35,077 nucleotides of DNA from Dehalococcoidia bacterium (GCA_034421495.1 DAOUKI010000025.1:1-35077), one strand, 5' to 3'. Counted from the first letter of the stretch, positions 2,772 through 34,015 are shown. A program made the numbers and translations. Notes: generated from the letters alone by a model not told the origin.

Positions 2772-2975
2772 ACGGACGCACCTCCCGGAAACCTTTGCAC
2801 TTGATGTGGGCAGCCCCCGCAAAACCTCGTCCCCCTTGACGGGGTAAGATTGAAGCCTGCCCCGTACTCGATACGGGGATGGGGGTGAACCATGCACTTT
2901 GTACCTGATGGTAACCTATCAGTAAAGTGGCGACGTGATACGCTGAGTCCACTAATGTGCGACAATGTACCTCCA

Positions 2976-3797: not shown

Positions 3798-3993
3798 CTT
3801 AACGTCAAGAGGAACGTGTAGGTAGTACCCTTCCTATCCACCCGCCGTTGCGAGCGCAGCGAAGCAATCTGGCAGCGGGGGGCCTGCAGTCAAACACAAT
3901 CCTCACCCCCTGACACCCGCCCCTTCCTCACTATGATTCCCTTGTTATACAATTCGCAGTCCAATAATCAGATGAAAGCGTAGGTACTAGCTG

Positions 3994-11797: not shown

Positions 11798-14700
11798 TTA
11801 CAATCTCCTGCGCCTTATGACGGCAACGGTGGCCCCGGTTAGCACGCTGGCGCACACCACGAGCACGATGACCCAAACCCGGGCTGGAGTGCCTTTGCTG
11901 TTCCCCGGTACGGCCTTGACCGTGGGCGGCGACGGCGTCGCCGGGGGAGCATCAGTCGAAGCGGGTGTGGGAGCCGCCGGTTGCGGCGATGGTGTCGCTG
12001 TGGATGTAGGTTGAAGCGTGGGTGTAGGCGTTGGCTGCGGTGGAGGTATTGGTGTGAGCGTCAGCGACCAAGTTGTCTTTGGAGGCGGAATTGGCGTCGG
12101 CGTCGTTTCAGGCGTCTGGCCGTACCCAATTGCGGGCGGCAAGATCGGCGTTACCCCACCTCTGTCGTCTGTCCCAATAGTCACAACGGGCTCCACCACC
12201 GTTATGTAGAACCTCAGCGATGCGCTGTCGCCGTCGGAGTCGGTAACGGTGTAGGTGAAACGGGTGCGCTCCAGTGTCTCTGTCGGGATGCCGGTGATGG
12301 CGCGAGATGGGGCATCGAATCGAAGGCCGTCGGGCAGGACAGGCGAAAGGTTGTATCTGAGGACGCCGTCACCTCCCCTGCCGCTGGGCAACGGCGACGT
12401 TTCCACGCGTTGCCCCACGGTGAAGATCATGTCCTCGACCACGGCGGAATCAAAGACCGGCGTGCGATTGGGTGCGGCTGTTTGAATGACCAAAGGAGTC
12501 GGTGGCGGGTTGTCGACGGGTGTTATGAGCAGTGACACCTTTGCCTCTACCAGAACGCGCACATCGTCCGCGGTGGTGGTGTTGGAGGCGTCGGTCACCA
12601 CCAGGGCAAACCTGATGACCACGTCTTCGGCCAGACCATCCGGCGCGATGAAGGTTGGCGCGACTGTATCCGCACCACTCAAGACAACATCGGGTCCTGC
12701 AATCTGTGTCCAGGAATAGGCCAGCGCAAGTCCCTCGGGATCGGAGCTGCCGGAGCCGTCAAGGGTTGCCGCCTCTCCTTCACCGACGGTCTGATCGGGC
12801 CCGGCATTGGCCGTGGGCAGATCGTTGACCTCTGTGACGGTCAGCGTGAAGGTGGCGGAGGCCGTTTCCGTACTATCTGTGGCAGTGATACGAATGGTGA
12901 GCGTGTCCGGCGTGTCGGCCTCTCTGGGCGTGCCGCTGAAGATTAGAGCGCGGGTGTCGACCGTGAAGTTGAGCCACCCAGGAAGAGGACTCCCGTCGCT
13001 CAGGGTAGCCCTGTGAGTGAGCGCGTCGCCGTCCGGGTCGTCGAAAGCCAGTGCCTGGTAGAAGAAGAAGCGGTCTTCGGTGGCCGTCTGGGGCTGGAAG
13101 GTGGGTGCTGCGGGAGAACGGTTCGCTGGTAGGACGACAGACAGCTGAAAGGTGGCACTTCTACTGTACAAATTGTCGGAGACGGAGACCATGATCTCAT
13201 GTGTGGCCAAGTCCGCCTCCAGAGGCGTGCCGCTGAAGGTTCGGGTGTTCTTATCGAACCGCAGCCAGCGCGGCAAAGGGTTATTTCCTCTGCCCTGAAA
13301 TGCGTCGTAGGTGAGCGTGCTGCCCTCGGGATCGGACGCCTCCGGCACAGTGTAGCTGAAGAGGTCGCCGGTAAACGCGGTCTGGTCTGTCAGAGATGGC
13401 GCTGCAGGCGGGTCGTTGACCTCTTTGACCGTGAGTGTGAACGTTGCGGACGCCGATTCCGGCGGTGTGCCGTCATCCGTGGCGGTGACGCGTATGGAGT
13501 GCGTGTCCGGCGTGTCCTGTTCCAAAGGCGTCCCACTGAAGGTGCGGGTGGCTGCGTCGAAGCCGAGCCACCCAGGGAGTGCGCTGCCGTCGGAGAGCGT
13601 TGCTCCGTAGGTGATGACGTCGTCCTCTGGATCGGTAACGGCGTCGAAGGCGTAGCTGAACGACTCATCCTCCGTGGCCGTCTTGTCCGACAGAGATGGC
13701 GCTGCGGGCGGGTCGTTCACCGGCGTTACGGTGATGACGACTGTCCCAGTGTCCGTAGCCGAGCCGTCGCTGACGGTGTAGGTGAAGCCACCCGAACTGG
13801 TCTCCAAGCCGTTGTGGGTATAGGTGACCGTCGCCCCGTCCTCTGAGAGAACAACCGAGCCGCTAACCGCGTCGCTCACGACAGTGATGGTGAGTGTATC
13901 GTCATTGGGGTCTGAGTCATTGGCTAGCAGCGCTGAGACAGCGATGTTCACGGCTTCGCCTTCGGCGACCGTAGCGGTGTCGTTGCCAGCGATGGGCGCA
14001 TCGTTGCGTTCGTTCACCGTCAGTATGAATGTGGCGGATGCAGATGCTGGTGGCGTGCCATTGTCCGTGGCGGTTACTCGTATGGTGAGGGTGGCTGGCG
14101 CGTCAGCCTCGCCTGGAGTGCCGCTGAAGGCGCGAGTGGCCGCGTCGAAGCTGAGCCACGCAGGGAGTACGGTGCCATCGGAGAGCGTTACTCCATAGGT
14201 GATGGAGTCGCCCTCCGGGTCGGCAACGGCGTCGAAAGTGTAGCTGAACGATTGATCCTCTGTAGCTGCTTGGCCTGCCAGCGATGGCGTCGCAGGCGGG
14301 TCGTTGATCTCTTGGACCGTGAGCGTGAAAGTGGCCTTGGTTGACGCCGCTGGCGTACCGTTGTCCGTGGCGGTGATGCGTATGGTCAGGGAGCTCGGCG
14401 TGTCGGATTCCAGGGGTGTTCCGCTGATAATGCGAGTGCTAGGGGTGAAGCTTAGCCAGCCGGGAAGTGCGCTGTTGTCGTCGAGCGCGGCGACGTAGGT
14501 GACGGTGTCACCATCAGGGTCGATGAAGGCAGGCACCGTGTAGCTAAAGGATTTGTCCTCTGTGGCGGTCTGGTCTGTCAGCGTGGGTGCTGTCGGTGCC
14601 CGGTTGGGCGGCAGCACAACCTTCAATGTGAAGGAGGCCCTGGAAGACTTGGCCGAATCGTCCGACACCTCGACCACGATTGTGTGCGTGGCAACGTGTG

Positions 14701-19782: not shown

Positions 19783-22089
19783 CTATAGACCTATGGAATT
19801 CTGCTCGTCCAAGTAAAGGATGTCGCAGCGAACCTCTAGTCGCTTTCGTTCATCAGCTCTTGGCACGAACATATCAGCAATCTCATCTGGGATCGGAATG
19901 AAGGTGCGATTCTTGGTGAGTATGGTCGATGTGGTCCTTGGACCTCGCCCGGACGGAGCTTCGACGAGTCCAGGACAAAGGATGTCGTAATACAAACCAA
20001 AGCGTCTGGAGTGGTGTTGAAATACAAAGATCACCTTCCGCCCACCCCAGACAATCTCTGTTGAGTGCGGCTGAAGAAAGAAATCTCCTTTTTCGCGCTG
20101 AACTCTGTCGCTTATCGAGAGAAAGCACCTGTATCCGTTTACTGGCTGCTCACTTGTGAGAAATCTCGCGCTCGTCTCCTCTTCCCGTCGGTCTATCCCT
20201 GGTCTGGCTTCAAAAGGATCGGGAATGCTCTCCTCTTCAGGCTCGTCTCCAATCTCTTTAACGACCGAAGAAAGCAGTTCCGTACCTGCATTGCTCACTT
20301 CAACATAAGATCGATCCGTGTCGGTCAGTCTCCTCGTAGCTTCGACGACCGTAAGCCGTCCAGCGTGCAGTTCCTCAAGAATCCCCTCTAGGTCAGCCCT
20401 ATCTTCAAGGTCGTACTCAAACCATTCTCGGTTTGAGCGAAGATGACGCAAGAAGGCTTCGGCTCCTTCCCGTGTGCTACTAGGCACGAGCTTAGAGACA
20501 CGCGGGAACACGGTTGATCTAACAAAGTCCTTGACAAAGGGACTGAACGCATTGAAGTCGTCGGTATAAAGAGCCAGCAACGGTGCAATACTACCCGAAG
20601 TTGGGTCAAGGTAGATCACAACCGGGGTGTTTGTACTAGTGACGAGAAGCGCAAGTCCACCGGTTATCGATCCAAATCTGATGTCAACGGGAAGGAAATA
20701 GTCCTCTTCCAGTATTCGGGTCAACCTAGTAGCAAGTGCCGTATGACCAAAATTCAAACTAGACGCAGGGATCTCTTCCTTCACCTTGGGCGTGACATCT
20801 ACTTCTGTTACCCCGTGTATCCTCAAATAGCCGAGCTCGCAGTCACGTCTAGGGGTCCGCCGAGACAGTACGACGAGCGGTTCATCTTCACTCGCATACG
20901 TTTGGACCACAGACTCATCACGACCTCCGTAATACCTCAACCCGCTACGTCCAACAATTGACGATAGTGCTTGCGGTTCACCACCAGGTCGAGGTGTAAC
21001 TTCAAGATGACCACAAAGCGAGAATTGGTTTGTGGCAACTATCCATTGAAGGAAGCCATCGTTTGAGAAAGACTCGGGATGTTCGGCGGCGATTGGCGAA
21101 ACCAGATTGTCCAGAGCGGAGATGATTCGTTGCAACAACTGACTTGATGCAGCGTCCAGGGCTTCACGGCCAGCTGTGGGTTGTAAGAAAGGGAGATCTA
21201 TCACGCCACCCCAGCGGTATCCAGACTGTGCTGCAACGTTGGCAAGGCCGAAGCCAGACCGTAATGTACGAATCATATTATGACCCTGCACTAATACGAT
21301 CGCCCCCGGCCTCCCGAGCCCTGTCTCAGACTTGAGGCCCTCAAGGATTATCCGAAGCTCTCCAGAAGCCATGCCATGTAGTTCCAGATTGCCGGACAGG
21401 ATATCGGCCAACGAGATGTCTGTCCTGTGCTCGTACCACGTATGCCTTTCGGATGGCAACGCATCCCTATGTTTGGCACCGCTGATCTTCTCGGTATTGA
21501 AGAAAACGGGTATGTCTACAAACTCCACGAATTCCCGAAGATATGTACGTGCGTCCTGAACAGACAACCCATGTCCCGGCGTAAGGTGAGCTCGTACGGT
21601 AGTCCCCGGTGCGCCGGTCTGTTCAGCTGGTGTTACGGATATACTCGGAGTGTCCGTCGATAACTCAGACTTCAAGACTGATGACAAGGTTCGTTCACCT
21701 GTAATTGCGGACTCACTTTCAACGGAGAGTTCGTCGGCGACACCGAAGTTGGCCATCGCTCCGATTCCAAACGTGCCTACCACACCAGCCGCCCGAGCGG
21801 CATCGCTATTCTTGCCACTCTTCCCCGCGTACCAAAAGTTTGCCTCAATCTCCTCTGCCGTCATACCAATTCCATTGTCGGTGACAACGACCTCTTCGCC
21901 ATTGACGGTCACATGGATTTCGGGTTCAAACTGGTGGCCCTCCGCTTGTCTCATCCGTACTGCGTCGAAAGCGTTTTGCGTGTTCTCCCTGAGTAGCGCG
22001 AGTGGAGATTGATAAATCTGATCGGCAAGCAACTCAAGTATTCGTGAGAACTCGACTTTGAACGCTATTCTCTTCTCAGTTGAAGTCAT
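19783..22089 (-). CDS. GHKL (HSP90/MORC-like, HATPase_c_3-type) ATPase with a ~600-aa uncharacterised C-terminal region
   Basis: Bergerat-fold motifs in the first ~115 aa: LLRENTQNAFDA (motif I, E..N..DA), VTDNGIGM (motif II, DxGxG), GTFGIGAMA (motif III). The start ATG overlaps the upstream stop (ATGA at 22089-22086). Confidence 0.8.
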   Translation of the reverse strand: MTSTEKRIAFKVEFSRILELLADQIYQSPLALLRENTQNAFDAVRMRQAEGHQFEPEIHVTVNGEEVVVTDNGIGMTAEEIEANFWYAGKSGKNSDAARAAGVVGTFGIGAMANFGVADELSVESESAITGERTLSSVLKSELSTDTPSISVTPAEQTGAPGTTVRAHLTPGHGLSVQDARTYLREFVEFVDIPVFFNTEKISGAKHRDALPSERHTWYEHRTDISLADILSGNLELHGMASGELRIILEGLKSETGLGRPGAIVLVQGHNMIRTLRSGFGLANVAAQSGYRWGGVIDLPFLQPTAGREALDAASSQLLQRIISALDNLVSPIAAEHPESFSNDGFLQWIVATNQFSLCGHLEVTPRPGGEPQALSSIVGRSGLRYYGGRDESVVQTYASEDEPLVVLSRRTPRRDCELGYLRIHGVTEVDVTPKVKEEIPASSLNFGHTALATRLTRILEEDYFLPVDIRFGSITGGLALLVTSTNTPVVIYLDPTSGSIAPLLALYTDDFNAFSPFVKDFVRSTVFPRVSKLVPSSTREGAEAFLRHLRSNREWFEYDLEDRADLEGILEELHAGRLTVVEATRRLTDTDRSYVEVSNAGTELLSSVVKEIGDEPEEESIPDPFEARPGIDRREEETSARFLTSEQPVNGYRCFLSISDRVQREKGDFFLQPHSTEIVWGGRKVIFVFQHHSRRFGLYYDILCPGLVEAPSGRGPRTTSTILTKNRTFIPIPDEIADMFVPRADERKRLEVRCDILYLDEQNSIGL

Positions 22090-23507
22090 GAGATCACCTT
22101 TCTGGCAGCGATGACCGCAGTGAGCTCCCTAAATATAGATGGGTCAATCAATGCCGACATAGTCTGGAGGCGCATTGAGGCTTCAGTGAATCGACGACAC
22201 TCAAGCAGAAGAGAAATGACTTTGACAGCCTCGTCTTGACTCTGAGGCGGGTCCAAGAGCCTGAGCAACTCTTCATGTCGCCCTAGGCCCTCTAGGGCCT
22301 TAATCTGGATCTGCCGTTTAACGTGTAGGTGGTCAGAGCCGCTTGATGGAAGAAGGTCCAATGCCTCCTTATGCCTGCCAAGCGTTACTGCCGTCATGGC
22401 ATCATCAAGCCTCTGTGTCACAGTGGGTCCTTTAGGACGTGCCGGAGAGTGATGAAGAGGCAAAGTGATGAATGTGTTACCCCCGAAGTCATCTCGATGC
22501 GAGCCGGTAAACACACCTGCGGGCGACATCGCTCTTACGTGAGTAGTAACTGTCTCGCTGTCTGGATTAATCTCTACAATGTTGAATTGTCGACGCTCTC
22601 CCATAGGAAGCTCCCTATCCCCTACTGCAAACGAACCTGCACCAATCACAGCCATTGACGTCAGGTTGGGGAGACGCAGTTCGAACGGTGCTGCGCCGGC
22701 GTAGTGGTGATGTCCGTGCAGACCTAGGCTGAATCCGAAATCAATTAGCCTGTGGACAATACGCACGTCCATGTAGTCATGTGCACGTGGCCCACCTAGA
22801 ACCCCATGGTGCCACGCTGCAATGGCAACTGGGGCCTGCGAATCCTGAAGTAGTTCCCGAGCCGTGGCTAGTGCCTTAGAGTCGATCTCTCCGACATGGC
22901 AGAAGCAGTCGTTCCCATGCCAAGAGGCGAAGCCCACGACAATTAACCCAAGCGACGGATATTCAATCCGAACAATATCGTTATCCTGCAACAATGGACT
23001 TGAGTCTAGACTAGCATAGAAATCTGCTTGAAATCGCCTGAAGTGTTCAAAGCGAGATTCATACGCATCCCTGTCAACAATCTCGTAGGCTTTCTGCTCC
23101 TTCCAGTTCCAGCGAATAGTGGAGTTGGCCTCAAATGCCTTGACGTCTATGCCGTCAGGACAGGTCTCTAGTGGATTCATCGCTTGTAGAGCGCGACTCC
23201 AGTGGACATCGTGGTTCCCAGGGACAATGATGACCCGCGATAGGTCCGAGTCAACTATCTCATCTGTCAATTGCTGTAGAAAGGTTCCGACCTCGGCATA
23301 TTGGCTGGCGATCTCGGAGTCAGGGTTTGGATGATTCACACTCGTACCCTGGATAAGGTCGCCGGTCACGACTATCACTTCGGGATACGGAATGCACTCC
23401 TTCTCCCATCGCTTAGTATCGCTGAGAATCGCAGATAGGAGCTCATCATTGTCGAGACGTGGCGTTGACGTCCGATGTAGGTCTGAGATGTGAAGCAAGG
23501 TAGGCAC
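22086..23507 (-). CDS. Calcineurin-like metallophosphoesterase with a C-terminal TPR-like helical tail
   Basis: MPE motifs in order: HISDLH, VTGDLIQG, VPGNHDV, AAWHH, LHGHHH. Track ORF 22086..23606 starts at a TTG and overlaps the upstream gene by 95 nt. GTG at 23507 is in frame, lies 4 nt after the upstream TGA and behind AGGTGA, and gives (M)PTLLHISDLH, so it is preferred. Confidence 0.85.
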   Translation of the reverse strand: MPTLLHISDLHRTSTPRLDNDELLSAILSDTKRWEKECIPYPEVIVVTGDLIQGTSVNHPNPDSEIASQYAEVGTFLQQLTDEIVDSDLSRVIIVPGNHDVHWSRALQAMNPLETCPDGIDVKAFEANSTIRWNWKEQKAYEIVDRDAYESRFEHFRRFQADFYASLDSSPLLQDNDIVRIEYPSLGLIVVGFASWHGNDCFCHVGEIDSKALATARELLQDSQAPVAIAAWHHGVLGGPRAHDYMDVRIVHRLIDFGFSLGLHGHHHYAGAAPFELRLPNLTSMAVIGAGSFAVGDRELPMGERRQFNIVEINPDSETVTTHVRAMSPAGVFTGSHRDDFGGNTFITLPLHHSPARPKGPTVTQRLDDAMTAVTLGRHKEALDLLPSSGSDHLHVKRQIQIKALEGLGRHEELLRLLDPPQSQDEAVKVISLLLECRRFTEASMRLQTMSALIDPSIFRELTAVIAARKVIS

Positions 23508-23511
23508 GGGA

Positions 23512-24147
23512 TCACCTAAGACTGAATCTCGACAGCATACGCTGATAGGTATCCTTAGTATCCAACAGGCTATTCGATTCCTGACGCTTGAGTTCCCATA
23601 GCTCAATGCCTACTGCCTCTGACCCCATCTCCATCAAATTCTCGTTAGCGGGGCTGTCCAGCGTCAGCAGCGACTTGCCAGAAGCGGCGAGCTTGCGAGC
23701 GAAGGCCTCCGTCTTGCTCCTAGGCGCGGCGTGGGCGATGAAGACTCGGCCTGCCAGTGAAGCCACTAGGTCGTTGCGCTGAGCAGCGTGCTCCGCCGTG
23801 GGCCTTCGAACCGTGGCCGGGAAGGGCGAAAGGACCAGCAAGCGACCGTCGTCTAGGGCGGGGCGCCAGTCGCGTGGGATGCGCATGTTGTCGATGCCGC
23901 GAGCCGGGCAGACGACCACAGGTTGCTTGCCACGCAGCAGGAGGCGTAGACACTCCCTCTCCATCGGTGTTTGGAAGCCGCCGATGACTGGGACGCCGGC
24001 ATCGCGCATGGCCCTGGCAAGGTCGTAGGTTTTCAGTATAAGGTCGCCCGGGCAGCGATTAGAGCAGAACAGGGCCGTTAGCGGCTCGTCGAGCAGGCTG
24101 AGATTACCCTTCGACTTGCCTTTCAGTAGAAGTTCCACGTTCACCAT
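23512..24147 (-). CDS. Soluble DprA/Smf-like SLOG-superfamily Rossmann protein (putative nucleotide sensor/processor)
   Basis: Colinear with the DprA core. VPVIGGFQTPMERECLRLLL aligns with GG..GID..AH..AL. LSPFP.....P....AAQRNDLVASLAGRVFIAHAAPRSKTEAFARKLAASGKSLLTL aligns with SE.P.G..P....F..RNR.IA.LS...VV.EA...SG...TA..A...G. I saw no TM segment. Confidence 0.7.
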   Translation of the reverse strand: MVNVELLLKGKSKGNLSLLDEPLTALFCSNRCPGDLILKTYDLARAMRDAGVPVIGGFQTPMERECLRLLLRGKQPVVVCPARGIDNMRIPRDWRPALDDGRLLVLSPFPATVRRPTAEHAAQRNDLVASLAGRVFIAHAAPRSKTEAFARKLAASGKSLLTLDSPANENLMEMGSEAVGIELWELKRQESNSLLDTKDTYQRMLSRFSLR

Positions 24148-24163
24148 GCGGCACCCATCCGCC

Positions 24164-25003
24164 TTAGTCTCCTATGCAGAACAGGTCGTTGAACGCTGCC
24201 CTGGTCTTGCAGGAGTTGACCTTGCCCCTAATCTGTCCAAGCTGAGCTGAGACTCCTTTACGGAGTTTGGAGCCTGCAGGTCCTAAATACTCGTCTACAT
24301 ATGTCGACTGCCCCGTGGGATCAGGGATTGGACTCATTACCGCTTTCATCGAGTATGTGAGGAAGTGCAAGAGCATGGACCTCGAGTCCAATTCGCCTTT
24401 ATAGCCCTTGAAGGCTCCGACTGCCAGAGATTCCATGTGGTATCCCTTGATTTTTCTGCCCTCGTGGGTAATGAAGCAGTCCGCGAGGGCCTTAGCAAAC
24501 TTGATTATAGGTACGACTCTCCCACCCCTTGAGTTGTTCACTTTGGCAAGCCTGTCAAGAAAGCGCTCAGGCTGTACGATGTTACTCCACTGGGTGCTGC
24601 CGGGATCGGCGATACGGAAGCCGTTGGTCGTCCGTATCGCTGGCAGTATCTGGATTTCGGATTTATCCGCGTAGCCGACCGTTACTGCCAGTTTGCCTTT
24701 GCTAACGGGATTCTTGGGGAGCCGCCGTTGGATCGTGTCGGCCACGTACGCTATAACCTTCGAGGGAGGTTTATTCTTGAGTGACGACTGGTTCACTATC
24801 AAGAGTACGTCGACATCACTGAGGCCTGTCACGTAAGTGCTCTTCTGGACGGAGCCGCCGAACTTTGTCTGCACCACATGATCGTCTTCGTGGCTGAGCA
24901 TGCTGCACAGACCATTAAGATGTCTCGCAACAGCTTTCCCACTTCGGCGTTTGTACTGCACGAGCAAGTTCTCGCAGTACCTATTGAAATTGTCCTTTGG
25001 CAC
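24164..25003 (-). CDS. SMODS/CD-NTase-like Pol-beta-fold nucleotidyltransferase
   Basis: GTG start 3 nt after the PIN gene's TAA and behind GGAGG. It carries the hG[GS]x9-13Dh[DE]h motif FGGSVQKSTYVTGLSDVDVLLIV. Downstream it has the layout usual in minimal CD-NTases: ...VTVGY....EIQILPA..., then W....P..F...L...N...GG...P.IKF.K. Confidence 0.7.
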   Translation of the reverse strand: MPKDNFNRYCENLLVQYKRRSGKAVARHLNGLCSMLSHEDDHVVQTKFGGSVQKSTYVTGLSDVDVLLIVNQSSLKNKPPSKVIAYVADTIQRRLPKNPVSKGKLAVTVGYADKSEIQILPAIRTTNGFRIADPGSTQWSNIVQPERFLDRLAKVNNSRGGRVVPIIKFAKALADCFITHEGRKIKGYHMESLAVGAFKGYKGELDSRSMLLHFLTYSMKAVMSPIPDPTGQSTYVDEYLGPAGSKLRKGVSAQLGQIRGKVNSCKTRAAFNDLFCIGD

Positions 25004-25006
25004 GGG

Positions 25007-25456
25007 TTACGCCTCCGCCTCGACCAGATCGTCCAAGACGACGACGGGTAAGCCGTCGACACGGCGAAAGTCGGTGTCGTTACTGATGAAGAGCGTGCAG
25101 CCGGCGCTAAGGGCTGTGGCCGCGTGCAGGGCGTCGGACGTCGCCAACCCCGTCTCGGCACGGATTCGGGCGGCGTCTTCCCAAATCGCCAACGTAGCGG
25201 GGACGAGTTGCGTCTCTGCGGCGGCGAAGATGGACCGAAACAGCATCTCAAGGCGAGCGTTGCCTTCTCGCAGGGGTTTGATCAGCGTTTCCAATACAAC
25301 GAGTTCGCTGCTAGCGATAGTGAACCGGCCCGCTCTGGCTTCTTGCCACATTGGGGCCAGCAATTCTCGATACGGCTCAATACGCTCAACGCTGTAGATG
25401 ATCGCATTGGCGTCGATGTAGACTGAACCACCAGTGGGCAGCGTCAACGACCCCAT
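25007..25456 (-). CDS. vapC: PIN-domain toxin (VapC-like)
   Basis: VYIDANAIIY (first acidic residue), SELVVLE, SDALHAATA and ISNDTDF are typical PIN motifs. It overlaps the upstream antitoxin gene by 13 nt. Confidence 0.85.
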   Translation of the reverse strand: MGSLTLPTGGSVYIDANAIIYSVERIEPYRELLAPMWQEARAGRFTIASSELVVLETLIKPLREGNARLEMLFRSIFAAAETQLVPATLAIWEDAARIRAETGLATSDALHAATALSAGCTLFISNDTDFRRVDGLPVVVLDDLVEAEA

Positions 25457-25677
25457 GCTTCCTTCTCCTCCGCCAGATACGCCTTTACTTCTGCGGCTGT
25501 CTTGAAGACCAAGTGCCCCGGCGCCTCGGCCAGAATGTCAACGACTGACCGCCTCGCCACAGCAGAGACGGGACTCACCACCACGTCCACGTTCTCACCC
25601 TCGGTCAACTCCTGATCGACGATCTCTATCTTGCCGCCGGGTTGTACCGTCGTCCGTATGTGCAACGCCTTTTGCAT
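25444..25677 (-). CDS. VapB-like antitoxin (77 aa, AbrB/SpoVT-like N-terminal half)
   Basis: Position and overlap with the PIN gene. GAGGAGG lies upstream. The N-terminus MQKALHIRTTVQPGGKIEIVDQELTEGENVDVVV resembles swapped-hairpin antitoxins. Its first 25 codons are the source of the recurrent leader module. Confidence 0.7.
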   Translation of the reverse strand: MQKALHIRTTVQPGGKIEIVDQELTEGENVDVVVSPVSAVARRSVVDILAEAPGHLVFKTAAEVKAYLAEEKEAWGR

Positions 25678-25679
25678 AG

Positions 25680-26933
25680 TTAGCGCCTCCTCTTTGGTGT
25701 AGCGACATACTCCCTGCCGTCGTCAGATTGGATTATGATGGACATATCTATCCCTCCCAGTGGCGACAGTAAGTCCTTCGGTACCTTACTGACTTCTGAC
25801 TGGACTTGAGACGTCTGAATATCTGCGAACCTCCCAAAGTGAACAAGTGCGGAATTAGGCTTGTAGTCCAGAAGCAAGTGAGTAATTCTCACAAGGGAAA
25901 TAGCTGTAAGGCAGATCGGGGTATCCAAGCCAATATCCGAGGGTCCATTTTGGGATTCTCCTCGCAAAGTCAGAGGGTCATTCAACATCCCAAACACATT
26001 GTTGTGGACGTAGGAATGACTCAGCGTGTATATGTCTAGATGCGAGTATCCACCATCCCGCTTGTTCTTTTCGACATGCCCAACTTGCCGCGCTCTGCTC
26101 GGAACATCTAAAGAAGCCTTCGGGTTGTCGGGGGGAGCAGTCCAGCCATCGTGATGTTTTAGATTCCATCCGCTGTACTTGCGTTTCAGTTCAATTAGGG
26201 CTTCATGCGCGAGGAGGTTATTGACATAGAAATAATTGGCTATACTCCAGTCGTTGTACCGTTCGGCCCGAGAGGGCACTTGTGTAGTATCTCTGGCGAT
26301 GTATGCCATGTTTACTTCGATTTCAAACAGCGATCGCCACAATATGATGGCGGATTGAATGTGGCCGCTCCTGCATTGGCTGACTATCACTCGGGCTAAT
26401 GTGCATGCTTGACCGAATAACATGCGGAGTGTGGGGCCTACTTCGCACTTATCTTGTCGGTAGTGTTGCGCCGTGGCCGCCCAGCAGTTAAAGCCATTTG
26501 CAACAAGCTTGTCCAGCCACGTCAGAGATTCGCCCCATTCTCCCTTGATCGCCTTTTCGACTAGCTTCTGTTCCTTGTTAAGCGCCTTGAGTAACGGAGT
26601 TTCTTCACCGGCCCGAAACAGCTCCTGAGTTGCTTCTCTCACCTCCGCTCGTTTTTCCAGTATTCCGATAGCCTGAGAATGAGTGCAAGTAATGGGAGTT
26701 CGATGCTTCATGTGGCGGTGACAATGCTGTAAGCCGGTAGATTCGTCTACAACGCTGGCCTTGCGAGAGCACATCACCCAGGCTCCATTCTTGGGATCAA
26801 ACATGGAGATTCGCCTCACCATACTATCGCAGTTACGTTCTCCATGCTTCCTCTCGAAATTCCAATCCGGGTAGTACATCCCAAATGCTAGAGGGACGAT
26901 TGTCGACGGTTTCGGTTTCCGGAAAATCTTCAT
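25680..26933 (-). CDS. Hypothetical protein (417 aa); Cys/His-rich N-terminal part, helical C-terminal part
   Basis: Long ORF, 2 nt from the next gene and 11 nt after the previous one. CSRK...LQHCHRHMKH...CTH may bind a metal. ILWRSLFEIEVNMAYIARD reminds me of DUF5677-type helical domains; this is from weak memory and unverified. Confidence 0.6.
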   Translation of the reverse strand: MKIFRKPKPSTIVPLAFGMYYPDWNFERKHGERNCDSMVRRISMFDPKNGAWVMCSRKASVVDESTGLQHCHRHMKHRTPITCTHSQAIGILEKRAEVREATQELFRAGEETPLLKALNKEQKLVEKAIKGEWGESLTWLDKLVANGFNCWAATAQHYRQDKCEVGPTLRMLFGQACTLARVIVSQCRSGHIQSAIILWRSLFEIEVNMAYIARDTTQVPSRAERYNDWSIANYFYVNNLLAHEALIELKRKYSGWNLKHHDGWTAPPDNPKASLDVPSRARQVGHVEKNKRDGGYSHLDIYTLSHSYVHNNVFGMLNDPLTLRGESQNGPSDIGLDTPICLTAISLVRITHLLLDYKPNSALVHFGRFADIQTSQVQSEVSKVPKDLLSPLGGIDMSIIIQSDDGREYVATPKRRR

Positions 26934-26944
26934 CGCTACATCAC

Positions 26945-27598
26945 TTACGCTGCCCGGAACTCCTTATCAAACACAAGTTCGTCGTATTTGGTAGTGATTC
27001 CGGAGTCCTTCAATATTCGAGAGCCAAGGGTTCGGCATATCAGATAGACAGCGAGAGAGTCCGCTATTGAAAACATGTGCCCCTCTGCGTAGGTATCTTC
27101 GATAGTGTGCTTTGATTTGTTATACACCGCTTTGGTTAGCTCCCATAGGGTTTCTACCAGATCAGCGTCAAGAGACCGGGCCTTACCGCGTTTCAGTATC
27201 ATGCCGATGGAAAGAGGACCGTCAATCTGGAGTTGCCCCTTAAGGCTGTTCTCCACATGGAGGCAGGACATGGTCACAATACTTCGGGTAAGCCATTCGA
27301 GGGAGAGATGTTGAAGGTAGCTACTCACGTACTGGATAGGCCTAAAGATAGGTCGGTCCTGTATGCTATAGACGGCTGCCAGTCCGCCACCACTAGTTCT
27401 CTCATTGATGTTGTGTTGCCCCAACCCAGGTATCGTCTTATCTATAAGGGTCAAATCCCGGAGTGCGGAATCTCCATCATCTACGGCAACGGCGCCAATC
27501 CGAAGAACTTCGGAGTGATAGGATGAGAGACCAGCCGCCTGAAGTATCTGATAGATCTCAGGCCGTAAGCCATTGGAGTGATTGCTGTCGTTATACAT
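26945..27598 (-). CDS. Hypothetical protein (217 aa)
   Basis: Long ORF preceded by a degenerate leader module that supplies GGGAGGG/GAGTAGGA as a ribosome-binding site. No confident motif recognised. Confidence 0.6.
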   Translation of the reverse strand: MYNDSNHSNGLRPEIYQILQAAGLSSYHSEVLRIGAVAVDDGDSALRDLTLIDKTIPGLGQHNINERTSGGGLAAVYSIQDRPIFRPIQYVSSYLQHLSLEWLTRSIVTMSCLHVENSLKGQLQIDGPLSIGMILKRGKARSLDADLVETLWELTKAVYNKSKHTIEDTYAEGHMFSIADSLAVYLICRTLGSRILKDSGITTKYDELVFDKEFRAA

Positions 27599-27674
27599 TC
27601 CTACTCAGCCCCTGGCCCTCCCGCTGCTTGATCTCGTAGCTTATAAAGTCCCCCGCCTTGCCGCCCTACCACCG
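27599..27674 (-). repeat. Degenerate partial copy (R4) of the antitoxin-derived leader module
   Basis: On the coding strand, GACTTTATAAGCTACGAGATCAAGCAGCGGGAGGGC...CTGAGTAGGA-ATG compares with R3, GACTTCATCATCAACTACGACATCAAGTATCGCATGGGTCGGGAGGGCTGAGTAGGAG. There is no ATG; the 5' part is missing and the hicB stop abuts it. Confidence 0.55.
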
Positions 27675-27878
27675 CTATACGCTAATGAGTTCGTACGACT
27701 GCGGCTCGGGAACGGGTAAGCCGTCTTCCTCAAGGGCCTCGACATAGAGGCGTATGGCCTCTCGAATAAGCTCGCACACCTCTTCCCTGGTATTCGCGGC
27801 GGCCACGCATCCGGGCAAGTCCGGCACGTGGGCGCCATAGCTGGTTGCCCCCTTCTCTATCACCACGGCGTATCTCAT
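27675..27878 (-). CDS. hicB: HicB-family antitoxin
   Basis: MRYAVVIEKGATSYGAHVPDLPGCVAAANTREEVCELIREAI..Y.E is the classic HicB/UPF0150 N-terminal domain. The ATG at 27878 lies behind GAAGGAG; the track ORF extends to 27926. Confidence 0.85.
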   Translation of the reverse strand: MRYAVVIEKGATSYGAHVPDLPGCVAAANTREEVCELIREAIRLYVEALEEDGLPVPEPQSYELISV

Positions 27879-27880
27879 AA

Positions 27881-28078
27881 TCAACTCCTTCTTTGTAAAC
27901 CAGCCTGCTTCAGGACATTGTTCCACGTTCCCTGGGGCATATCAACGCCCGGATGTCCTGCAATAACGACTATCCCCTGCTTGGCCGGGTGCTTGTACAC
28001 GCGGTGACTGCCCCGAGTCCGCACCAGGCGCCAGCCGTCCCGTTCTACCATGCGAATGGCGTCCCTAACCTTTGGCAC
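27881..28078 (-). CDS. hicA: HicA-family mRNA interferase toxin
   Basis: The sequence (V->M)PKVRDAIRMVERDGWRLVRTRGSHRVYKHP...VVIAGH.G.D.P.GT....KQAGL has the HicA/YcfA signature G.SH...(H). GTG start. hicA precedes hicB, as is usual. Confidence 0.85.
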   Translation of the reverse strand: MPKVRDAIRMVERDGWRLVRTRGSHRVYKHPAKQGIVVIAGHPGVDMPQGTWNNVLKQAGLQRRS

Positions 28079-28114
28079 AGCCCATTTCCAATGATATTCC
28101 TTCCGTTGTGGTCA

Positions 28115-29191
28115 TCATCGCCAGTCTCCCCATTCCGAGGAATGCAAAGGAAACATTTGTGGGAATCGGTTCCACGAATCATAATCTGGATCTCTATAGT
28201 GCTCCTCGTCCTCTAAGACCTTGACAAAGCGCACGGCATCGCGAGCTAAGCTCAAGAGATTGTAGTTCGCTGGATTCGGCAAAGCGTCGCCCCCGTCCTT
28301 CATCCTGATCCGATACTCATCCCAAGTCTTCCTCTCGGAATTTATGTGTCCCTCCATTTCCCAGATGGCCCGTGTCAGTCCCCCTAGCTCCATGAGTGAT
28401 GGACCAGTGATTCGGATAGCTTGGGTGCATTGATCGGCCAGTTCCTCGAACTTATTAAAAACCCACCGCAGGGAGTCGTATGAATCTATACCTTTCAAGA
28501 ACGCCTCGCGTTCTAGGGGCCTGTGTTTTGTTAGCCTCATAATCAAGTCGCGAGACTCTCTGTAGTCCCGTGGGCGGTCCCGGGAGTCGTGACTACCCTG
28601 CCTCCCTGGGTGGTCGAACCATTGCTGTGCAGTTACCGTCACAGCATGCATAGCCGTATTTCGAAGTCTTCGAATAAACCACTCAAGGAGCTTGGGTGTC
28701 TGGGCGCGCGCCATGTCTGCAATCTCATCTGGCGAAGCACGTCGCGTTGAGCTTCCATCCCTGACATAGACGGCGTTGACGTCCACTTTGCCGTACTTGC
28801 TGACCGCGTAGACAGGACGTGGTTGAAGTGGGATGCATAGCACACCGATCTCCTTGTCTTCAGTCTCAAACGGCGAGTAGCTAAACTCGGCTGATCTGTT
28901 GGTCTTGGAATTGACAAATTGGTGCAGGTTGGCGTCGTCTAGGTGGTCCGCAACTCCAACGACATTACTGCGCCCACCCTGTACCTCTTCTACGCCGATC
29001 AAGATATACGCAGTGCGATAACGTTGAGTATTGACAAAGGCGAGTATGTCTTTTAGCAACTTACTCTTGTCTGTATCGCTTGTATTGTTGAAGCGGTACT
29101 GCTCTCTCTTGAAGTCAAGAGTAGGCCCTTCTTCCATATTCAGGAGAGCCTCCAACATCTCGCTATTGAAGGGTGGGCCTTGCATGGTCAT
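28115..29191 (-). CDS. AlbA_2 (Schlafen-like, 'divergent AAA') domain protein with an uncharacterised C-terminal half
   Basis: N-terminal pattern: E.LL..EEGPTLDFKRE........K..LLKDILAFVNT......YILIGVEE.....VVGV. The C-terminal ~180 aa carries no motif I recognise. Confidence 0.7.
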   Translation of the reverse strand: MTMQGPPFNSEMLEALLNMEEGPTLDFKREQYRFNNTSDTDKSKLLKDILAFVNTQRYRTAYILIGVEEVQGGRSNVVGVADHLDDANLHQFVNSKTNRSAEFSYSPFETEDKEIGVLCIPLQPRPVYAVSKYGKVDVNAVYVRDGSSTRRASPDEIADMARAQTPKLLEWFIRRLRNTAMHAVTVTAQQWFDHPGRQGSHDSRDRPRDYRESRDLIMRLTKHRPLEREAFLKGIDSYDSLRWVFNKFEELADQCTQAIRITGPSLMELGGLTRAIWEMEGHINSERKTWDEYRIRMKDGGDALPNPANYNLLSLARDAVRFVKVLEDEEHYRDPDYDSWNRFPQMFPLHSSEWGDWR

Positions 29192-29203
29192 AATCCGTCT
29201 GCT

Positions 29204-29325
29204 CTACCCTTCCCGACCCATGCGATACTTGCTGTCATAGTTGATGGTGAAGTCCAACTCTGGGCTGACAAGCTCACCTTGCACCGGGCTGAACTGTAGT
29301 CCTCACATGCAACGCTTTTTTGCAT
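29204..29325 (-). repeat. Leader module copy R1 (indel-scarred)
   Basis: Starts ATGCAAAAAAGCGTTGCATGTGAGGACTACAGTTCAGCCCGG, which with one A removed reads MQKALHVRTTVQPG. The tail frame reads VSPELDFTINYDSKYRMGREG-TAG. In the actual ATG frame a 45-codon ORF (29188..29325) ends in an ATGA overlap with the AlbA_2 start. GGGAGA lies upstream. Confidence 0.8.
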
Positions 29326-29336
29326 AAATGTCTCCC

Positions 29337-29917
29337 TTATGGAGTTGCTGGATCAGACCAGTCCCTCTCAAACGGATTACAGAGTTCCGTAAAAGTTTCG
29401 GGGTCAATCGTTGGAAACAGCGTCTCAAGAATGCTTCCGGTTGCGTTGTCCAGAGCCCCACAAGCTTCTCTGATCCGTCGGCCTGCTGTCAAAGGATCAG
29501 GGGGCAATCTTGAAACAAGTTCTAGAGCGCGACGATATGAAGCCATGCCGATACGCTGAGGTTCTAGTCCGTAACGCTGTGCCGCATAGCGCGAAAAGGC
29601 GGCCGCCATTCCCTCCGCCAACCAATTCCCAGTCCCTGGTCTGGGGTTCAATAAATGCACTGTCTCATGGGCTAATTCATAGACGGTTGTTGGCCAGTAC
29701 CTTCGGCGTTCCGACTCAATTCTGCGAACGCCCCATCTAGATTTGGTGTGTTGCGAATGTACGGACCATCGTCTGCAAAAACTGGTTGGTAAATGGTCTT
29801 AGAGGCGTCCCGTGGTCCAAGAATGTCCTCAGCAAGCTTCAACAGGTGCACCTGCATCGACCATAGCCCACTGGGGTCTTCCCTTGGCGACGGAGTCGCC
29901 TGCAGGGTTAGCTCCAT
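29337..29917 (-). pseudogene. HExxH metallopeptidase-like gene split by a frameshift (track ORFs 29672..29917 and 29337..29660)
   Basis: The HExxH motif (YELAHETVHLL) is encoded at 29655-29669. It straddles the artificial GTG 'start' of the 107-aa ORF, whose frame stays open upstream of that GTG. The 81-aa ORF ends at 29672 in a different frame. A 1-nt indel around 29672-29710 would join them. Confidence 0.55.
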
Positions 29918-29920
29918 AGC

Positions 29921-30042
29921 CTACCCCTCCCGCCCCATGCGATACTTGATGTCGTAGTTGATGGTGAATCCAACTCCGGGCTGGAAACCTCTATCCTGCC
30001 GCCTGGTTGAACAGTCGTCCTAACGTGCAGCGCCTTTTCCAT
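29921..30042 (-). repeat. Leader module copy R2 (1-nt deletion)
   Basis: MEKALHVRTTVQPGGRIEVSSPELD, then a 1-nt deletion (TTGGA-TTC). The ancestral tail frame reads (F)TINYDIKYRMGREG-TAG and ends 3 nt before the downstream ATG. The actual 44-aa ORF is 29908..30042. Confidence 0.8.
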
Positions 30043-30131
30043 TCTTCTAGTCCCCCTTTACAGGATGAGTTCCCTACGGCTCCTGCAATGCGTCGGAAGG
30101 CTCTTCGGGGCTCTTCCAATCGCCAATTGAT

Positions 30132-30881
30132 TCATGTGATGCTGGCATCATCCCATACGACTTCAGCGGCCAGATACTCGCGTAGTACCATCCTTACTAG
30201 GATTCCGCCTGATGCTTGAGCGACGGCGTATCGGTAGACCTCGTCTTGAACATCCTGCCAGCTATCAAAGTAGACTTCCTGGGAACCTGCTGGCCGGTGG
30301 ACGATGAAAGCCCTCTGCATCATTCTGCTGCCCACTTCCGGCCAACCTGAGCCATGCGGAACATTCTCAAACTGATCAATCTGTCGAGCTGTCATCACCT
30401 GAATTGGGCGGACTGACACATGAGAAGGCCACGCAAACATAGGTTCACCCATTTCGTAGAGAACGTGCCCGCGGGCGTTCTTCACGATGACCCGCTGTAT
30501 ACGGTCGAGTTCAGGTTCCCACAAGACTTCGACATCGCCCCACAGGTTTCCTTGAACCGTTCGGGACCGGTCAATCCGGTTGCCCAATCGGGGGCTATGG
30601 GTCAATATGCCGGAGGCCACAGGAAATCTGACCGGGTCTGGTCTTGTGGAGCCACTGAGCACCGAGCCGAGAAAGGCGATCAGGTACTCCTCATCCGATG
30701 AAAAGCTGGCGTTACATTGTCGGCACACTTGCACTACGGGCAGGTTCTCAGGGTAAGGAGGGTTCAAGAGACCCCGAGTCGGCACGTGATCCCGATTGGA
30801 ATCATCAGGTCTCAGCCCGCTCCCACAATGGATGCAGAAGCCCTTGTTTCTACTATCGCTGTAGTCGGTCAGTTGGTCCAT
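30132..30881 (-). CDS. HNH endonuclease-family protein (HNH_5-like) with an uncharacterised C-terminal domain
   Basis: CIHCGSGL.....NRDHVPTRGL........LPVVQVCRQCNASFSSDEEY matches the CxxC...DH...N...CxxCN beta-beta-alpha-metal finger arrangement. Confidence 0.75.
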   Translation of the reverse strand: MDQLTDYSDSRNKGFCIHCGSGLRPDDSNRDHVPTRGLLNPPYPENLPVVQVCRQCNASFSSDEEYLIAFLGSVLSGSTRPDPVRFPVASGILTHSPRLGNRIDRSRTVQGNLWGDVEVLWEPELDRIQRVIVKNARGHVLYEMGEPMFAWPSHVSVRPIQVMTARQIDQFENVPHGSGWPEVGSRMMQRAFIVHRPAGSQEVYFDSWQDVQDEVYRYAVAQASGGILVRMVLREYLAAEVVWDDASIT

Positions 30882-30897
30882 ATGCGTAGTCTCCTAC

Positions 30898-31020
30898 TCA
30901 GCCCTCCCGACCCATGCGATACTTGATGTCGTAGTTGATGATGAAGTCCAACTCCGGGCTGGCAACCTCCACCCTGCCGCCGGGCAGTACCGTCGTCCTT
31001 ACGTGCAGTGCCTTTTGCAT
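30898..31020 (-). CDS. Intact 40-aa leader ORF (module copy R3): MQKALHVRTTVLPGGRVEVASPELDFIINYDIKYRMGREG
   Basis: GAGGAGGA lies 7 nt upstream of the ATG. This is the only copy with one uninterrupted frame. Its TGA is followed by GTAGGAG and, 16 nt later, the HNH gene's ATG. Translation has not been shown. Confidence 0.4.
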   Translation of the reverse strand: MQKALHVRTTVLPGGRVEVASPELDFIINYDIKYRMGREG

Positions 31021-31065: not shown

Positions 31066-32268
31066 TCAAGTCCTTCCTCTCCGAGGATATGTGAACTCCT
31101 GCTGCCACGATACATATGGAGAATACGGCTTTTTCCTCACCGAACCATCGACTTGGTGATCTGCAACCGTGAACCAAAAGTCTTCTCGTATCGGAGATGC
31201 ATAATGCTTTGCAAGGACAACTTCCAGTATGGCTCGCTTGTCTTCGTCAGATGTACGGCTGCCAAAAATAATTCCTTTCAGTGCCTCAATTGGATACTGT
31301 ACTGTATGGGTAGATGGATTTCCTTCGAACTGACCGTCAAAAAAGTTAGACATCGCGAACATACGAACTTCTTGTTCGATTTCCCAATGCTTCTGTTTGG
31401 TGAGAAGACTGCTTACACTCATCCGTCTGCGCTCTTCAAACACAGCATTCCTATCAATCTTGTCTTCTGGAAGAAATGGACACAGATCACTGATGTCTCC
31501 ATTCTCATCAGTGAACAGTCTTCTGTACTCGGCTGTGGTAAGTTTAGGTAGATTGGAAAAGAACTCTATCTCACGCTTTACGCCCTCGTACTCTACATCC
31601 TTCAGTTCCACTCCAAAAGTGTGTTCTGGCGCTTGTATTTTCATTAGGGAGTCTCTATCGAATACCAAACATACACCTGTATTGTTGTCGGCATATGTCG
31701 TCCACAAAAACGGGTTGGTGAAGTCCTTTGTGAAGCAAGCAACACCCCATTCGGATAGGAGCATCTTTCCCATTGCCCTAACAAACTCTGCTGGAAAATC
31801 ACTATACGGCTGAGTCACCGGGTCCAATAGAGTGCGGACATGTCCAGGAGTTACTTTGCGAAGTGCGTCCTGAAAGGCATAGTTGGAAACAGGTTGCTCA
31901 CCCTGAACAAGACCCTTAACTATTTCAACTCTGCTATCCTCAAATATCTTCGATAGACGATCTGATTCCGATTCTATCAAGAGTGTATCTATTGAACCTT
32001 CCCTCAATATATTATAACCCGGCAAGCAGACTTGCCTCATGGTTGTCGAAAATACAAGCGCCCTCCAGTAGTAGTGAATTAGATTTGACCAAAGAGTTTC
32101 ATCGCCCTGCCAAACTACATTGACCATATCTTCAGCTACGTCGTTCAGTTGATCTGGACGAGCAAGATATATGGTCTGGCGGTACAGTTCCTTGTGATCG
32201 CCGACCAAAGCTTCAACCGATCTGAACCGGTATATCTCACTGGAGTCTGGTTTAGAACTAAAGAACAC
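31066..32268 (-). CDS. DUF2971-family protein
   Basis: Family hallmarks as I remember them: IYLARPDQLNDVAED (usually ..fNDP.E), GVACFTKDFTNPFLWTTYADNNTGVCLVFD (..CFS....lMWshYa..h.G.cl.F), LTKQKHWEIEQEVRMF (K...W..E.E.R). Confidence 0.7.
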   Translation of the reverse strand: MFFSSKPDSSEIYRFRSVEALVGDHKELYRQTIYLARPDQLNDVAEDMVNVVWQGDETLWSNLIHYYWRALVFSTTMRQVCLPGYNILREGSIDTLLIESESDRLSKIFEDSRVEIVKGLVQGEQPVSNYAFQDALRKVTPGHVRTLLDPVTQPYSDFPAEFVRAMGKMLLSEWGVACFTKDFTNPFLWTTYADNNTGVCLVFDRDSLMKIQAPEHTFGVELKDVEYEGVKREIEFFSNLPKLTTAEYRRLFTDENGDISDLCPFLPEDKIDRNAVFEERRRMSVSSLLTKQKHWEIEQEVRMFAMSNFFDGQFEGNPSTHTVQYPIEALKGIIFGSRTSDEDKRAILEVVLAKHYASPIREDFWFTVADHQVDGSVRKKPYSPYVSWQQEFTYPRRGRT

Positions 32269-33571: not shown

Positions 33572-34015
33572 TGCTTACGTCTTCCGACTGGTATATTCTA
33601 TGCCCAGGGGGTCAAGGCCAACGTCCTGTTCTTCGACCGGAAGCCAGCCAGTGAGACCCATTGGACGCGTGACCTGTGGATCTACGACCTGCGCACGAAC
33701 CGGCACTTCACCCTCAAAACCAACCCCCTGACCCGCGCCGACCTGGACGACTTCGTAGCCTGCTACAACCCAGAAGCTCGCCACGAGCGCCAGGCCACCG
33801 AACGCTTTCGCAGGTTCAGCTACGAGGACCTAATGAAGCGGGACAAGGTGAATCTCGACATCTTCTGGCTGCGTGACGAGAGCATGGAGGACTCGGCCAA
33901 CCTGCCGCCGCCGGATCAGATTGCCGAGGAAATCGTCGAAGACCTCCGAGCCGCCTTGGAACAGCTGGAGGAGATTGCCGGGGACCTATCGCCGGAGACG
34001 ACATCCGCACCGTAG
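33572..34015 (+). pseudogene. hsdM: 5'-truncated fragment (C-terminal ~147 codons) of a type I restriction-modification methyltransferase gene
   Basis: Reads (C)LRLPTGIFYAQGVKANVLFFDRKPASE...W.YDLRTN.HFTLKTNPLTRADLDDFVACYNPE.RHER..TERFR.FSYE.L..RDKVNLDIFWL.DES.ED..NLP.P, the conserved HsdM C-terminus. An in-frame TGA at 33515 and unrelated sequence lie upstream. No catalytic NPPF region and no hsdS/hsdR are present in the window. Confidence 0.85.

Follow-up and report, generated by a model that had tools for sequence, protein, structure and literature searches.

The contig DAOUKI010000025.1 of a Dehalococcoidia bacterium (assembly GCA_034421495.1) raises the question why one and the same short DNA module should stand in front of several unrelated genes. 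The window analysed here is this entire contig (positions 1-35077, 35,077 nucleotides (nt)), and the module belongs to a gene array in a region of about 15 kb with 52% GC (guanine plus cytosine) that lies within DNA of 60% GC. Direct-repeat search and alignment identified three copies of about 122 nt and one degenerate copy, each located 5′ of a different gene and all on the minus strand. Our analysis revealed that the module is a join of two gene ends. Its head (V) is the 5′ end of an antitoxin gene and its tail (T) is the 3′ end of a gene for a type IIG restriction-methyltransferase, and the module as a whole is probably a chimeric gene-end scar that was left by microhomology-mediated unequal recombination and later served as a passive patch of homology. 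All four copies of the original prediction were recovered by repeat search, alignment and a profile of the methyltransferase (MTase) 3′ end, as follows.

R1, 30898-31020, minus strand: V joined to T, intact open reading frame (ORF) of 40 codons; 58.9 bits to the MTase 3′-end profile.
R2, 29921-30042, minus strand: V joined to T, with a 1-nt deletion at the junction; 51.2 bits to the same profile.
R3, 29204-29325, minus strand: V joined to T, with two indels; 48.1 bits to the same profile.
R4, 27599-27702, minus strand: old degenerate T stub directly after the hicB stop codon, the degenerate tail proper covering 27599-27674.

In R1, V covers approximately 30949-31020, with a Shine-Dalgarno sequence reaching up to 31035, and T covers 30898-30955; the ORF translates as MQKALHVRTTVLPGGRVEVASPELDFIINYDIKYRMGREG. 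As had been predicted, only this copy keeps a single open frame, since R2 and R3 carry indels, those of R3 being a +1 insertion in a run of A and a 2-nt deletion. The conserved block of R4 reaches 27702 and lies partly inside the 3′ end of hicB. The copies in the window diverge from one another by 10-25%, an identical run of 30 nt is common to R1 and R2, and a degenerate V..T pattern gave two matches in the window against none in 100 shuffles. E-values to the enzyme 3′-end profile were 9e-18 (R1), 2e-15 (R2), 2e-14 (R3) and 0.013 (R4). The score thus declines along the array, down to 9.8 bits for R4, which would fit an entry of newer cassettes on the side of the enzyme gene, although four points prove nothing. 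The array extends from a DUF2971 gene (31066-32268) to a 77-amino-acid (aa) antitoxin-like gene with its PIN partner (25007-25677), and, in line with the original prediction, the gene that follows the module is a different one every time.

T is the exact C-terminus, namely the last 16-18 codons plus the stop codon, of a type IIG restriction-methyltransferase family of about 1100 aa that is present in many phyla. Its peptide reads (EL)DFIINYDIKYRMGREG-stop and had at first been taken for a shared tail of no recognisable origin. A protein search with the 40-aa peptide of R1 returned two kinds of matches, the identical chimeric peptide in other assemblies and many short ORFs ending in ...IDRVLAEHYGFTEEELDFIINYDIKYRMGREG. 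Exactly this ending terminates a gene of 1121 aa in the syntenic locus L001 (4107-7472), the product of which matches the PADLOC model REase_MTase_IIG from end to end with 1269 bits. This gene is preceded by a gene for an HKD-Snf2 helicase. The homology of R1-R3 to the enzyme gene starts at GGAGTTGGAC. Besides the stubs, i.e. separate gene ends such as T, searches of the window with tblastn and nhmmer identified no remnants of the enzyme or the helicase.

A genome-wide scan with the back-translated motif NYDIKYRMG detected at least 120 loci in many phyla. Deinococcus petrolearius (L017), Gracilimonas amylolytica (L105), Caproiciproducens galactitolivorans (L122) and Stygiobacter electus (L094) are candidates for carriers of the enzyme family that can be grown in culture. 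Among the matches listed, 66 end long ORFs of about 1100 aa and 54 are orphan stubs, a class that we defined by fewer than 100 in-frame codons upstream of the motif. Another 17 degenerate stubs were found, and eight loci with T on viral contigs, full-length genes and stubs mixed, were uninformative. Codon tables of the 120 loci listed showed every synonymous codon in use at all T positions. T is therefore conserved as a protein sequence, a legacy of the enzyme gene, and the idea that it acts as a DNA-level site was ruled out on the same grounds. Third-position differences between the tails in the window had been read as a hint of past selection at the protein level. Four such differences are indeed present together with two second-position ones, and, since T derives from the enzyme gene, they require no selection on the module itself.

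Repeated enzyme gene ends were also seen in two other configurations. In two Leptospiraceae loci (L013:75-336 and L064:6045-6337) a second copy of the last 20-45 codons with identical tail lies 236-267 nt past the full-length enzyme gene, the unit from stub to stub being very short and without obvious cargo. The stubs at L010:1489, L056:6512 and L098:1341 read ...EELDFIPSxxLRxG directly followed by NYDIKYRMG, and look as if two versions of the C-terminal tail had been joined in tandem.

V comes from a PIN-associated antitoxin gene of the SPELEAGQTVDVVV type, of which it has the Shine-Dalgarno sequence, the start codon and the first 24 codons. The first 24 codons of the module match the 77-aa antitoxin, and the antitoxin origin that had been proposed for the module holds for this half and not for the enzyme-derived tail. 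The resident antitoxin gene is also not the closest relative. V carries ...(V/I)(A/S)SPEL, as do the full-length 77-aa antitoxins of the same type in L005, L002 and L068, and is closer to this paralogous SPEL-type antitoxin than to the resident gene, which reads VDQELTEGENVDVVV. Neither the 77-aa antitoxin nor the chimeric peptides gave anything significant in Pfam, NCBIfam or PDB. Where V and T meet they have a microhomology of 9 nt in common, GGAGTTGGA, read as SPEL in V and as EELD in T (context CCG GAG TTG GAG in the antitoxin gene and GAG GAG TTG GAC in the enzyme gene).

The join itself is visible in a comparison of three loci. Positions 1-785 of L126, with an Mrr_cat gene followed by V, are collinear with L068 at 82% identity, where the full-length antitoxin gene comes after this Mrr_cat gene, and this homology ends at the V-T junction. 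Positions 722-1344 of L126 are collinear with R2 and the adjoining HExxH gene of the window (85% over 623 bp). The module recurs outside the window, which supports the original prediction: the 40-aa type is found in L126 and L127, and a second fusion point, giving a 49-aa type with 36 codons of V and with T from NYD onwards, in L001 and L002. Intact ORFs of 40 or 49 aa were found in five assemblies. Two further candidates were rejected, P0007 (L004), which is a frameshifted antitoxin gene with its C-terminal part in another frame and not a chimeric junction, and P0006 (L003), which is a truncated copy with a match limited to the first ~33 residues, probably a remnant of the same kind and not a V-T fusion.

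In related Dehalococcoidia-like genomes, in which the enzyme gene comes after an HKD-Snf2 helicase gene, a slot for variable defence and toxin-antitoxin cargo lies between the enzyme gene and a DprA-like gene, and in the lineage of the window this slot typically ends with antitoxin-PIN genes. By comparison with the relatives, the array of the window occupies this slot; it has the DprA-like gene (23512-24147) downstream and no enzyme gene upstream, while relatives have both. Roughly 75 of the sampled loci, from different phyla, have a DprA-like gene downstream of the enzyme gene, and it is the commonest gene directly after the full-length enzyme gene (14 of 44). Where a full-length enzyme gene and a downstream DprA-like gene were both found (34 loci), the two are directly adjacent in 18 and spaced by 0.6-3.4 kb in 16. 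With the HKD-Snf2 helicase gene that lies upstream in L001, the genes for the enzyme and the DprA-like protein may make up a system of three genes; in PADLOC the helicase gave only weak matches to HmaA and DrmD.

The genes following stubs are diverse (Bro-N, RhuM, DUF3800, AlbA_2, DUF4258, Mrr_cat, deaminase, STAND, HicB) and typical of defence and toxin-antitoxin cargo. Among the matches listed, the stub boundaries are scattered over 0-236 nt upstream of NYD, by which a single crossover point was rejected. The unit of T and the HExxH gene occurs behind three different upstream joins, namely the 40-aa type (window and L126), the 49-aa type (L002) and a decayed stub (L003), and T followed by DUF4258 occurs with two stub lengths in L002 and L008. 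The R4 block is 84% identical to L003:7910-8655, where the stub still reads TFVSYKIKHRMGQEG-stop, and the R4-type stub accompanies a 217/223-aa gene in both the window and L003. Decayed stubs coexist with intact ones.

Arrays with their enzyme gene still in place are known from L001, L019, L010, L030, L013 and L064, in which a full-length copy stands upstream of the stubs, in contrast to the window. In L019 (positions 1600-4100, Cyanobacteria bacterium UBA999) three 122-nt stubs that repeat the 3′ end of the full-length enzyme gene lie behind this gene and separate MNT-HEPN, MNT-HEPN and HicAB cassettes, followed by an MNT fragment. This is the architecture of the window minus V; the genes past the MNT fragment resemble rimP and nusA by sequence, and we take them to be of the housekeeping type. 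L005 begins with bare stubs adjoining housekeeping genes. The same substitutions recur in all three downstream stubs of L019, and the modules in the window share one junction. Derived features that are common within an array in this way fit a spread by homologous recombination or duplication.

How such an array might arise can be outlined for the scar reading. The comparisons above show where both halves come from, the point at which they are joined, the recurrence in other loci and the architecture of the slot, and the recombination mechanism and the order of events are what we infer. Two copies of the locus would recombine unequally, with the 9-nt microhomology as guide, and ...cargo A-V of one copy would be joined to T-cargo B... 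of the other, giving cargo A-V-T-cargo B as the product. The V-T patches of about 120 bp, together with flanking T and V sequences, could then act as portable homology, and ordinary homologous recombination might add, swap or delete cassettes, by which the same type of junction would come to stand before unrelated cargo. In the window contig the enzyme and helicase genes would since have been lost, and the array, with frameshifted modules and a frameshifted HExxH gene, would be decaying. As a side effect, the T end (GGGAGGGG, stop codon, often as TGATG) might offer the next gene a ribosome-binding site and a context for termination-reinitiation. The variable stub lengths argue for illegitimate and homologous recombination rather than for a dedicated recombinase. 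The original prediction of a junction for recombinational cassette exchange within a defence island therefore fits the evidence in spirit, except that only the head is derived from the antitoxin and the tail from the enzyme 3′ end.

Several points weigh against the scar reading. Recombination intermediates or a polymorphic population were not observed, and the mechanism rests on end-products. The enzyme gene is missing from the window contig, and the slot architecture is taken from relatives. Stub boundaries cluster somewhat at 0-1 nt and at ~50-60 nt, which we would attribute to microhomology and to the ends of local alignments. No microhomology was identified at the junction of the 49-aa type. 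V-T itself is rare: it was found in five assemblies, and a scan of Joint Genome Institute (JGI) metagenomes with a gapped degenerate pattern, which recovers R1, R2, L001, L002 and L127, gave no match. Finally, five of the seven known V-T modules have an open frame and both fusion types are in-frame, which could hint at selection for translation.

The genes around the modules, to which the alternative explanations refer, are given below.

31066-32268, minus strand: DUF2971 protein, the first cassette, with no T stub upstream.
30132-30881, minus strand: cargo after R1, a protein of 249 aa that resembles HNH_5 only weakly (E = 0.007, which misses the Pfam cut-off).
29337-29917, minus strand: cargo after R2, an HExxH (HETVH) protein, frameshifted, the gene being split by a 1-nt deletion near 29670.
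28115-29191, minus strand: cargo after R3, a Schlafen/AlbA_2 protein, with the AlbA_2 family match confirmed.
27675-28078, minus strand: toxin-antitoxin pair of hicA (27881-28078) and hicB (27675-27926).
26945-27598, minus strand: cargo after R4, a 217-aa protein of no family, the L003 orthologue of which likewise follows an R4-type stub.
25680-26933, minus strand: DUF5677 protein, cargo, missing from the L003 arrangement.
25444-25677, minus strand: resident 77-aa PIN-associated antitoxin of the VDQEL type, a full-length relative of V.
25007-25456, minus strand: PIN toxin of the resident antitoxin.
24164-25003, minus strand: SMODS/CBASS-type cyclase, 303 bits to the PADLOC cyclase model.
23512-24147, minus strand: DprA-like gene (DNA_processg_A, PsyrA-like), the conserved downstream flank of the cargo slot in relatives.

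The cargo identities given originally stand for the AlbA_2 protein, the HExxH protein and the 217-aa protein without family, while the nuclease assignment after R1 falls below the family cut-off. Orthologues of the HExxH gene in L002 and L003 are intact (192-193 aa), and its frameshift in the window reflects either decay or a sequencing error; the indels of R2, R3 and the HExxH gene could all be sequencing errors. A scan of the array for promoters and terminators found no enrichment over shuffles. In the window hicA precedes hicB, the listed ORFs overlapping by 46 nt, while L001 and L002 have hicB followed by hicA.

Three other regions of the window were recorded. On the minus strand at 22086-25003, the cyclase gene is followed by the DprA-like gene and then by one for a calcineurin-like phosphoesterase, and no clear CBASS effector was identified there; in L002 a Cap17-like gene follows the cyclase gene. 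At the edge of the low-GC island (11798-17488, minus strand) lies a gene for a protein of 1896 aa with He_PIG, Big_9 and cadherin-like repeats. On the plus strand at 33833-34015, some 1.5 kb past the upstream limit of the array and opposite to it in orientation, an ORF of 60 codons matches the C-terminal region of the EcoKI type I methyltransferase HsdM (residues 462-508 of 529; E = 7e-4). The ORF looks like one more orphan 3′ stub, from a restriction-system gene, and no hsdM body was noticed alongside, with no dedicated search made for it.

Could the module be kept because it is useful to the gene behind it? It might be maintained by selection as a short leader ORF, in which the antitoxin-derived Shine-Dalgarno sequence and start codon load ribosomes and the stop codon of T couples translation to a promoterless cargo gene. 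We regard this as possible though rather unlikely; it is compatible with a scar origin and concerns only the persistence of the scar. The position of the T stub suggests that it could provide a ribosome-binding and translational-coupling context for the cargo: T ends in GGGAGGGG and a stop codon, and among the matches listed the next gene begins at an overlapping TGATG or within 25 nt after 40 of 55 full-length genes and 32 of 48 orphan stubs. The open frames of both fusion types speak for a leader as well, and even the frameshifted ORFs of R2 and R3 still terminate on or just past the start codon of the cargo gene. On the other hand, frameshifts affect two of the window's three copies, the R4-type stubs and those of L003 are decaying through deletions, and a stop-free run of 20 codons is unremarkable in GC-rich DNA. 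The G-rich end of the module had been proposed as the Shine-Dalgarno sequence of each cargo gene, and this applies to R2 only, in which GGGAGGGG lies 7 nt 5′ of the HExxH start codon. The cargo gene of R1 has its own AGGAGA nearer to the start codon, the T end of R3 is at least 17 nt away from the AlbA_2 start codon, and at R4 the Shine-Dalgarno-like GTAGGA next to the start codon lies past the stop codon of the stub.

A more far-reaching role, which we consider improbable, is that T stubs and V-T modules form a recombinase-free platform for cassette capture that belongs to the system of IIG enzyme, helicase and DprA-like protein. The gene ends would serve as homology arms, the DprA-like protein, a relative of the RecA loader, might promote capture, and the mini-ORF would couple translation. 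If true, such a platform would let cells collect and shuffle defence genes much like an integron.

A functional mini-antitoxin or regulatory peptide that controls toxic downstream cargo, as had also been suggested, is very hard to reconcile with these data. V does match the antitoxin N-terminus, and the intact ORFs of 40 and 49 aa in several assemblies would be in keeping with a peptide product. However, V keeps only 24 of 77 residues, about one third of the antitoxin, and has none of its C-terminal half; T comes from an unrelated enzyme; the cargo genes are related neither to one another nor to PIN; two of the three local copies are broken; and the peptides have no match in the protein databases searched. 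The module was rejected as a type II antitoxin because of the few residues kept and the unrelated cargo that follows, in contrast to the resident antitoxin (25444-25677), which is full-length and directly upstream of its PIN toxin as in type II systems.

Equally slim is the chance that the module is the site of a site-specific recombination system, either integron-like (attC/attI) or the target of some other recombinase, that captures cassettes. Co-oriented repeats of about 120 bp between short unrelated genes of the same direction do resemble a cassette array, and this was the only feature of an attC/integron identity that was found. Folding of R1-R3 as DNA on both strands revealed no hairpin or imperfect palindrome and no excess stability over shuffles (z from -1.42 to +0.58), the modules and their surroundings contain no inverted repeats, and the ORFs scanned over the 35-kb contig yielded no recombinase or integrase domain. 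Across phyla T is free to vary at its synonymous positions, and the stubs have scattered boundaries. A structured RNA leader or riboswitch was rejected as well, as the module had no match in Rfam at the gathering threshold and folding of both strands with DNA parameters was unremarkable, and so was a miniature inverted-repeat transposable element or insertion-sequence-derived repeat, as there are no terminal inverted repeats and both halves trace to host genes. The lack of a fold, an inverted repeat, an Rfam family or a recombinase, taken together with scattered boundaries and decayed stubs, argues against both a site-specific recombination site and an RNA element.

In favour of an assembly artefact, such as chimeric or collapsed repeats, one might cite the indels in a homopolymer run of R3 and in the HExxH gene and the origin of related contigs from low-coverage long-read assemblies, judging by contig names. 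This explanation is next to impossible given that the copies differ by 10-25% and that other samples, assembled independently, contain the same junction.

If the modules are gene-end scars, as we consider probable, the stubs represent the physical footprint of the embedding of defence genes in a restriction system, with each joint marked. In many phyla the motif NYDIKYRMG, whether in a full-length gene or in a stub, marks a slot with abundant defence and toxin-antitoxin genes. The motif could serve for a kind of guilt by stub, i.e. to mine new defence genes and to order the acquisition events within an array. Furthermore, short ORFs such as the one for the 40-aa peptide call for caution in annotation, as they are chimeric pseudogene remnants.

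Among known arrangements, integron arrays contain repeats of 60-140 bp between unrelated and co-oriented cassettes, most of which lack a promoter and among which toxin-antitoxin and defence genes abound. The array described here is similar in its short repeats between co-oriented unrelated genes, but it has no attC-like hairpin and no integrase, and its repeats are coding-derived stubs with free synonymous variation. In the accretion of islands at att sites of transfer RNA (tRNA) and transfer-messenger RNA (tmRNA) genes, repeated gene 3′ ends border successive acquired segments, with a fixed crossover site and an integrase. Copies of a gene 3′ end likewise form the borders here, whereas the stub lengths vary and no integrase is present.

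Payne et al. (2024) described defence genes embedded in multi-gene systems, namely Hma, BREX, DISARM and type I restriction-modification (bioRxiv 10.1101/2024.01.29.577857); in the sections considered here the significance and origin of embedding are left open and stubs are not described. Those loci resemble the slot of the relatives, in which conserved genes on both sides enclose variable, co-oriented cargo of the defence and toxin-antitoxin kind; of the two flanks the window keeps the downstream one. The host differs, since it consists here of a type IIG enzyme, an HKD-Snf2 helicase and a DprA-like gene, and the match to HmaA is too weak for an assignment to Hma. In view of these embedded genes, as presented there, and of the orphan arrays treated below (PMC5361080), the original statement that no element of this kind has been described goes too far.

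The closest described process is the sequential or C-terminal displacement that gives rise to orphan arrays in Rhs, contact-dependent inhibition (CDI) and Vibrio cholerae type VI secretion system (T6SS) loci. Orphan arrays with retained gene-end stubs have been described for all three (PMC5361080). For the T6SS arrays, Kirchberger et al. (2017) proposed homology-facilitated illegitimate recombination, in contrast to plain homologous replacement, and 3′ ends of displaced effector genes can move back into the array (PMC5361080). The Rhs, CdiA and T6SS arrays resemble the present one in that a conserved main gene is followed by variable cassettes, without a dedicated recombinase. The proposed origin is also alike, with homology-anchored and illegitimate recombination followed by exchange through ordinary homologous recombination, and in both cases the orphans keep a fragment of the conserved segment followed by horizontally shared variable cargo. 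The unit is different, being an alternative C-terminal toxin domain with its immunity gene in those systems and independent cargo genes here, where the stub is the extreme 3′ end of the enzyme gene. Those arrays have the main gene upstream, whereas the window contig is without it. Unlike in those arrays, the stub is fused here to the 5′ stub of the antitoxin gene that flanks the slot downstream, by which an in-frame chimeric mini-ORF is formed. What is new in the present case is not the class of element but the host system, the origin of the stub from the extreme 3′ end of a restriction enzyme gene, and the chimeric mini-ORF made of two stubs.

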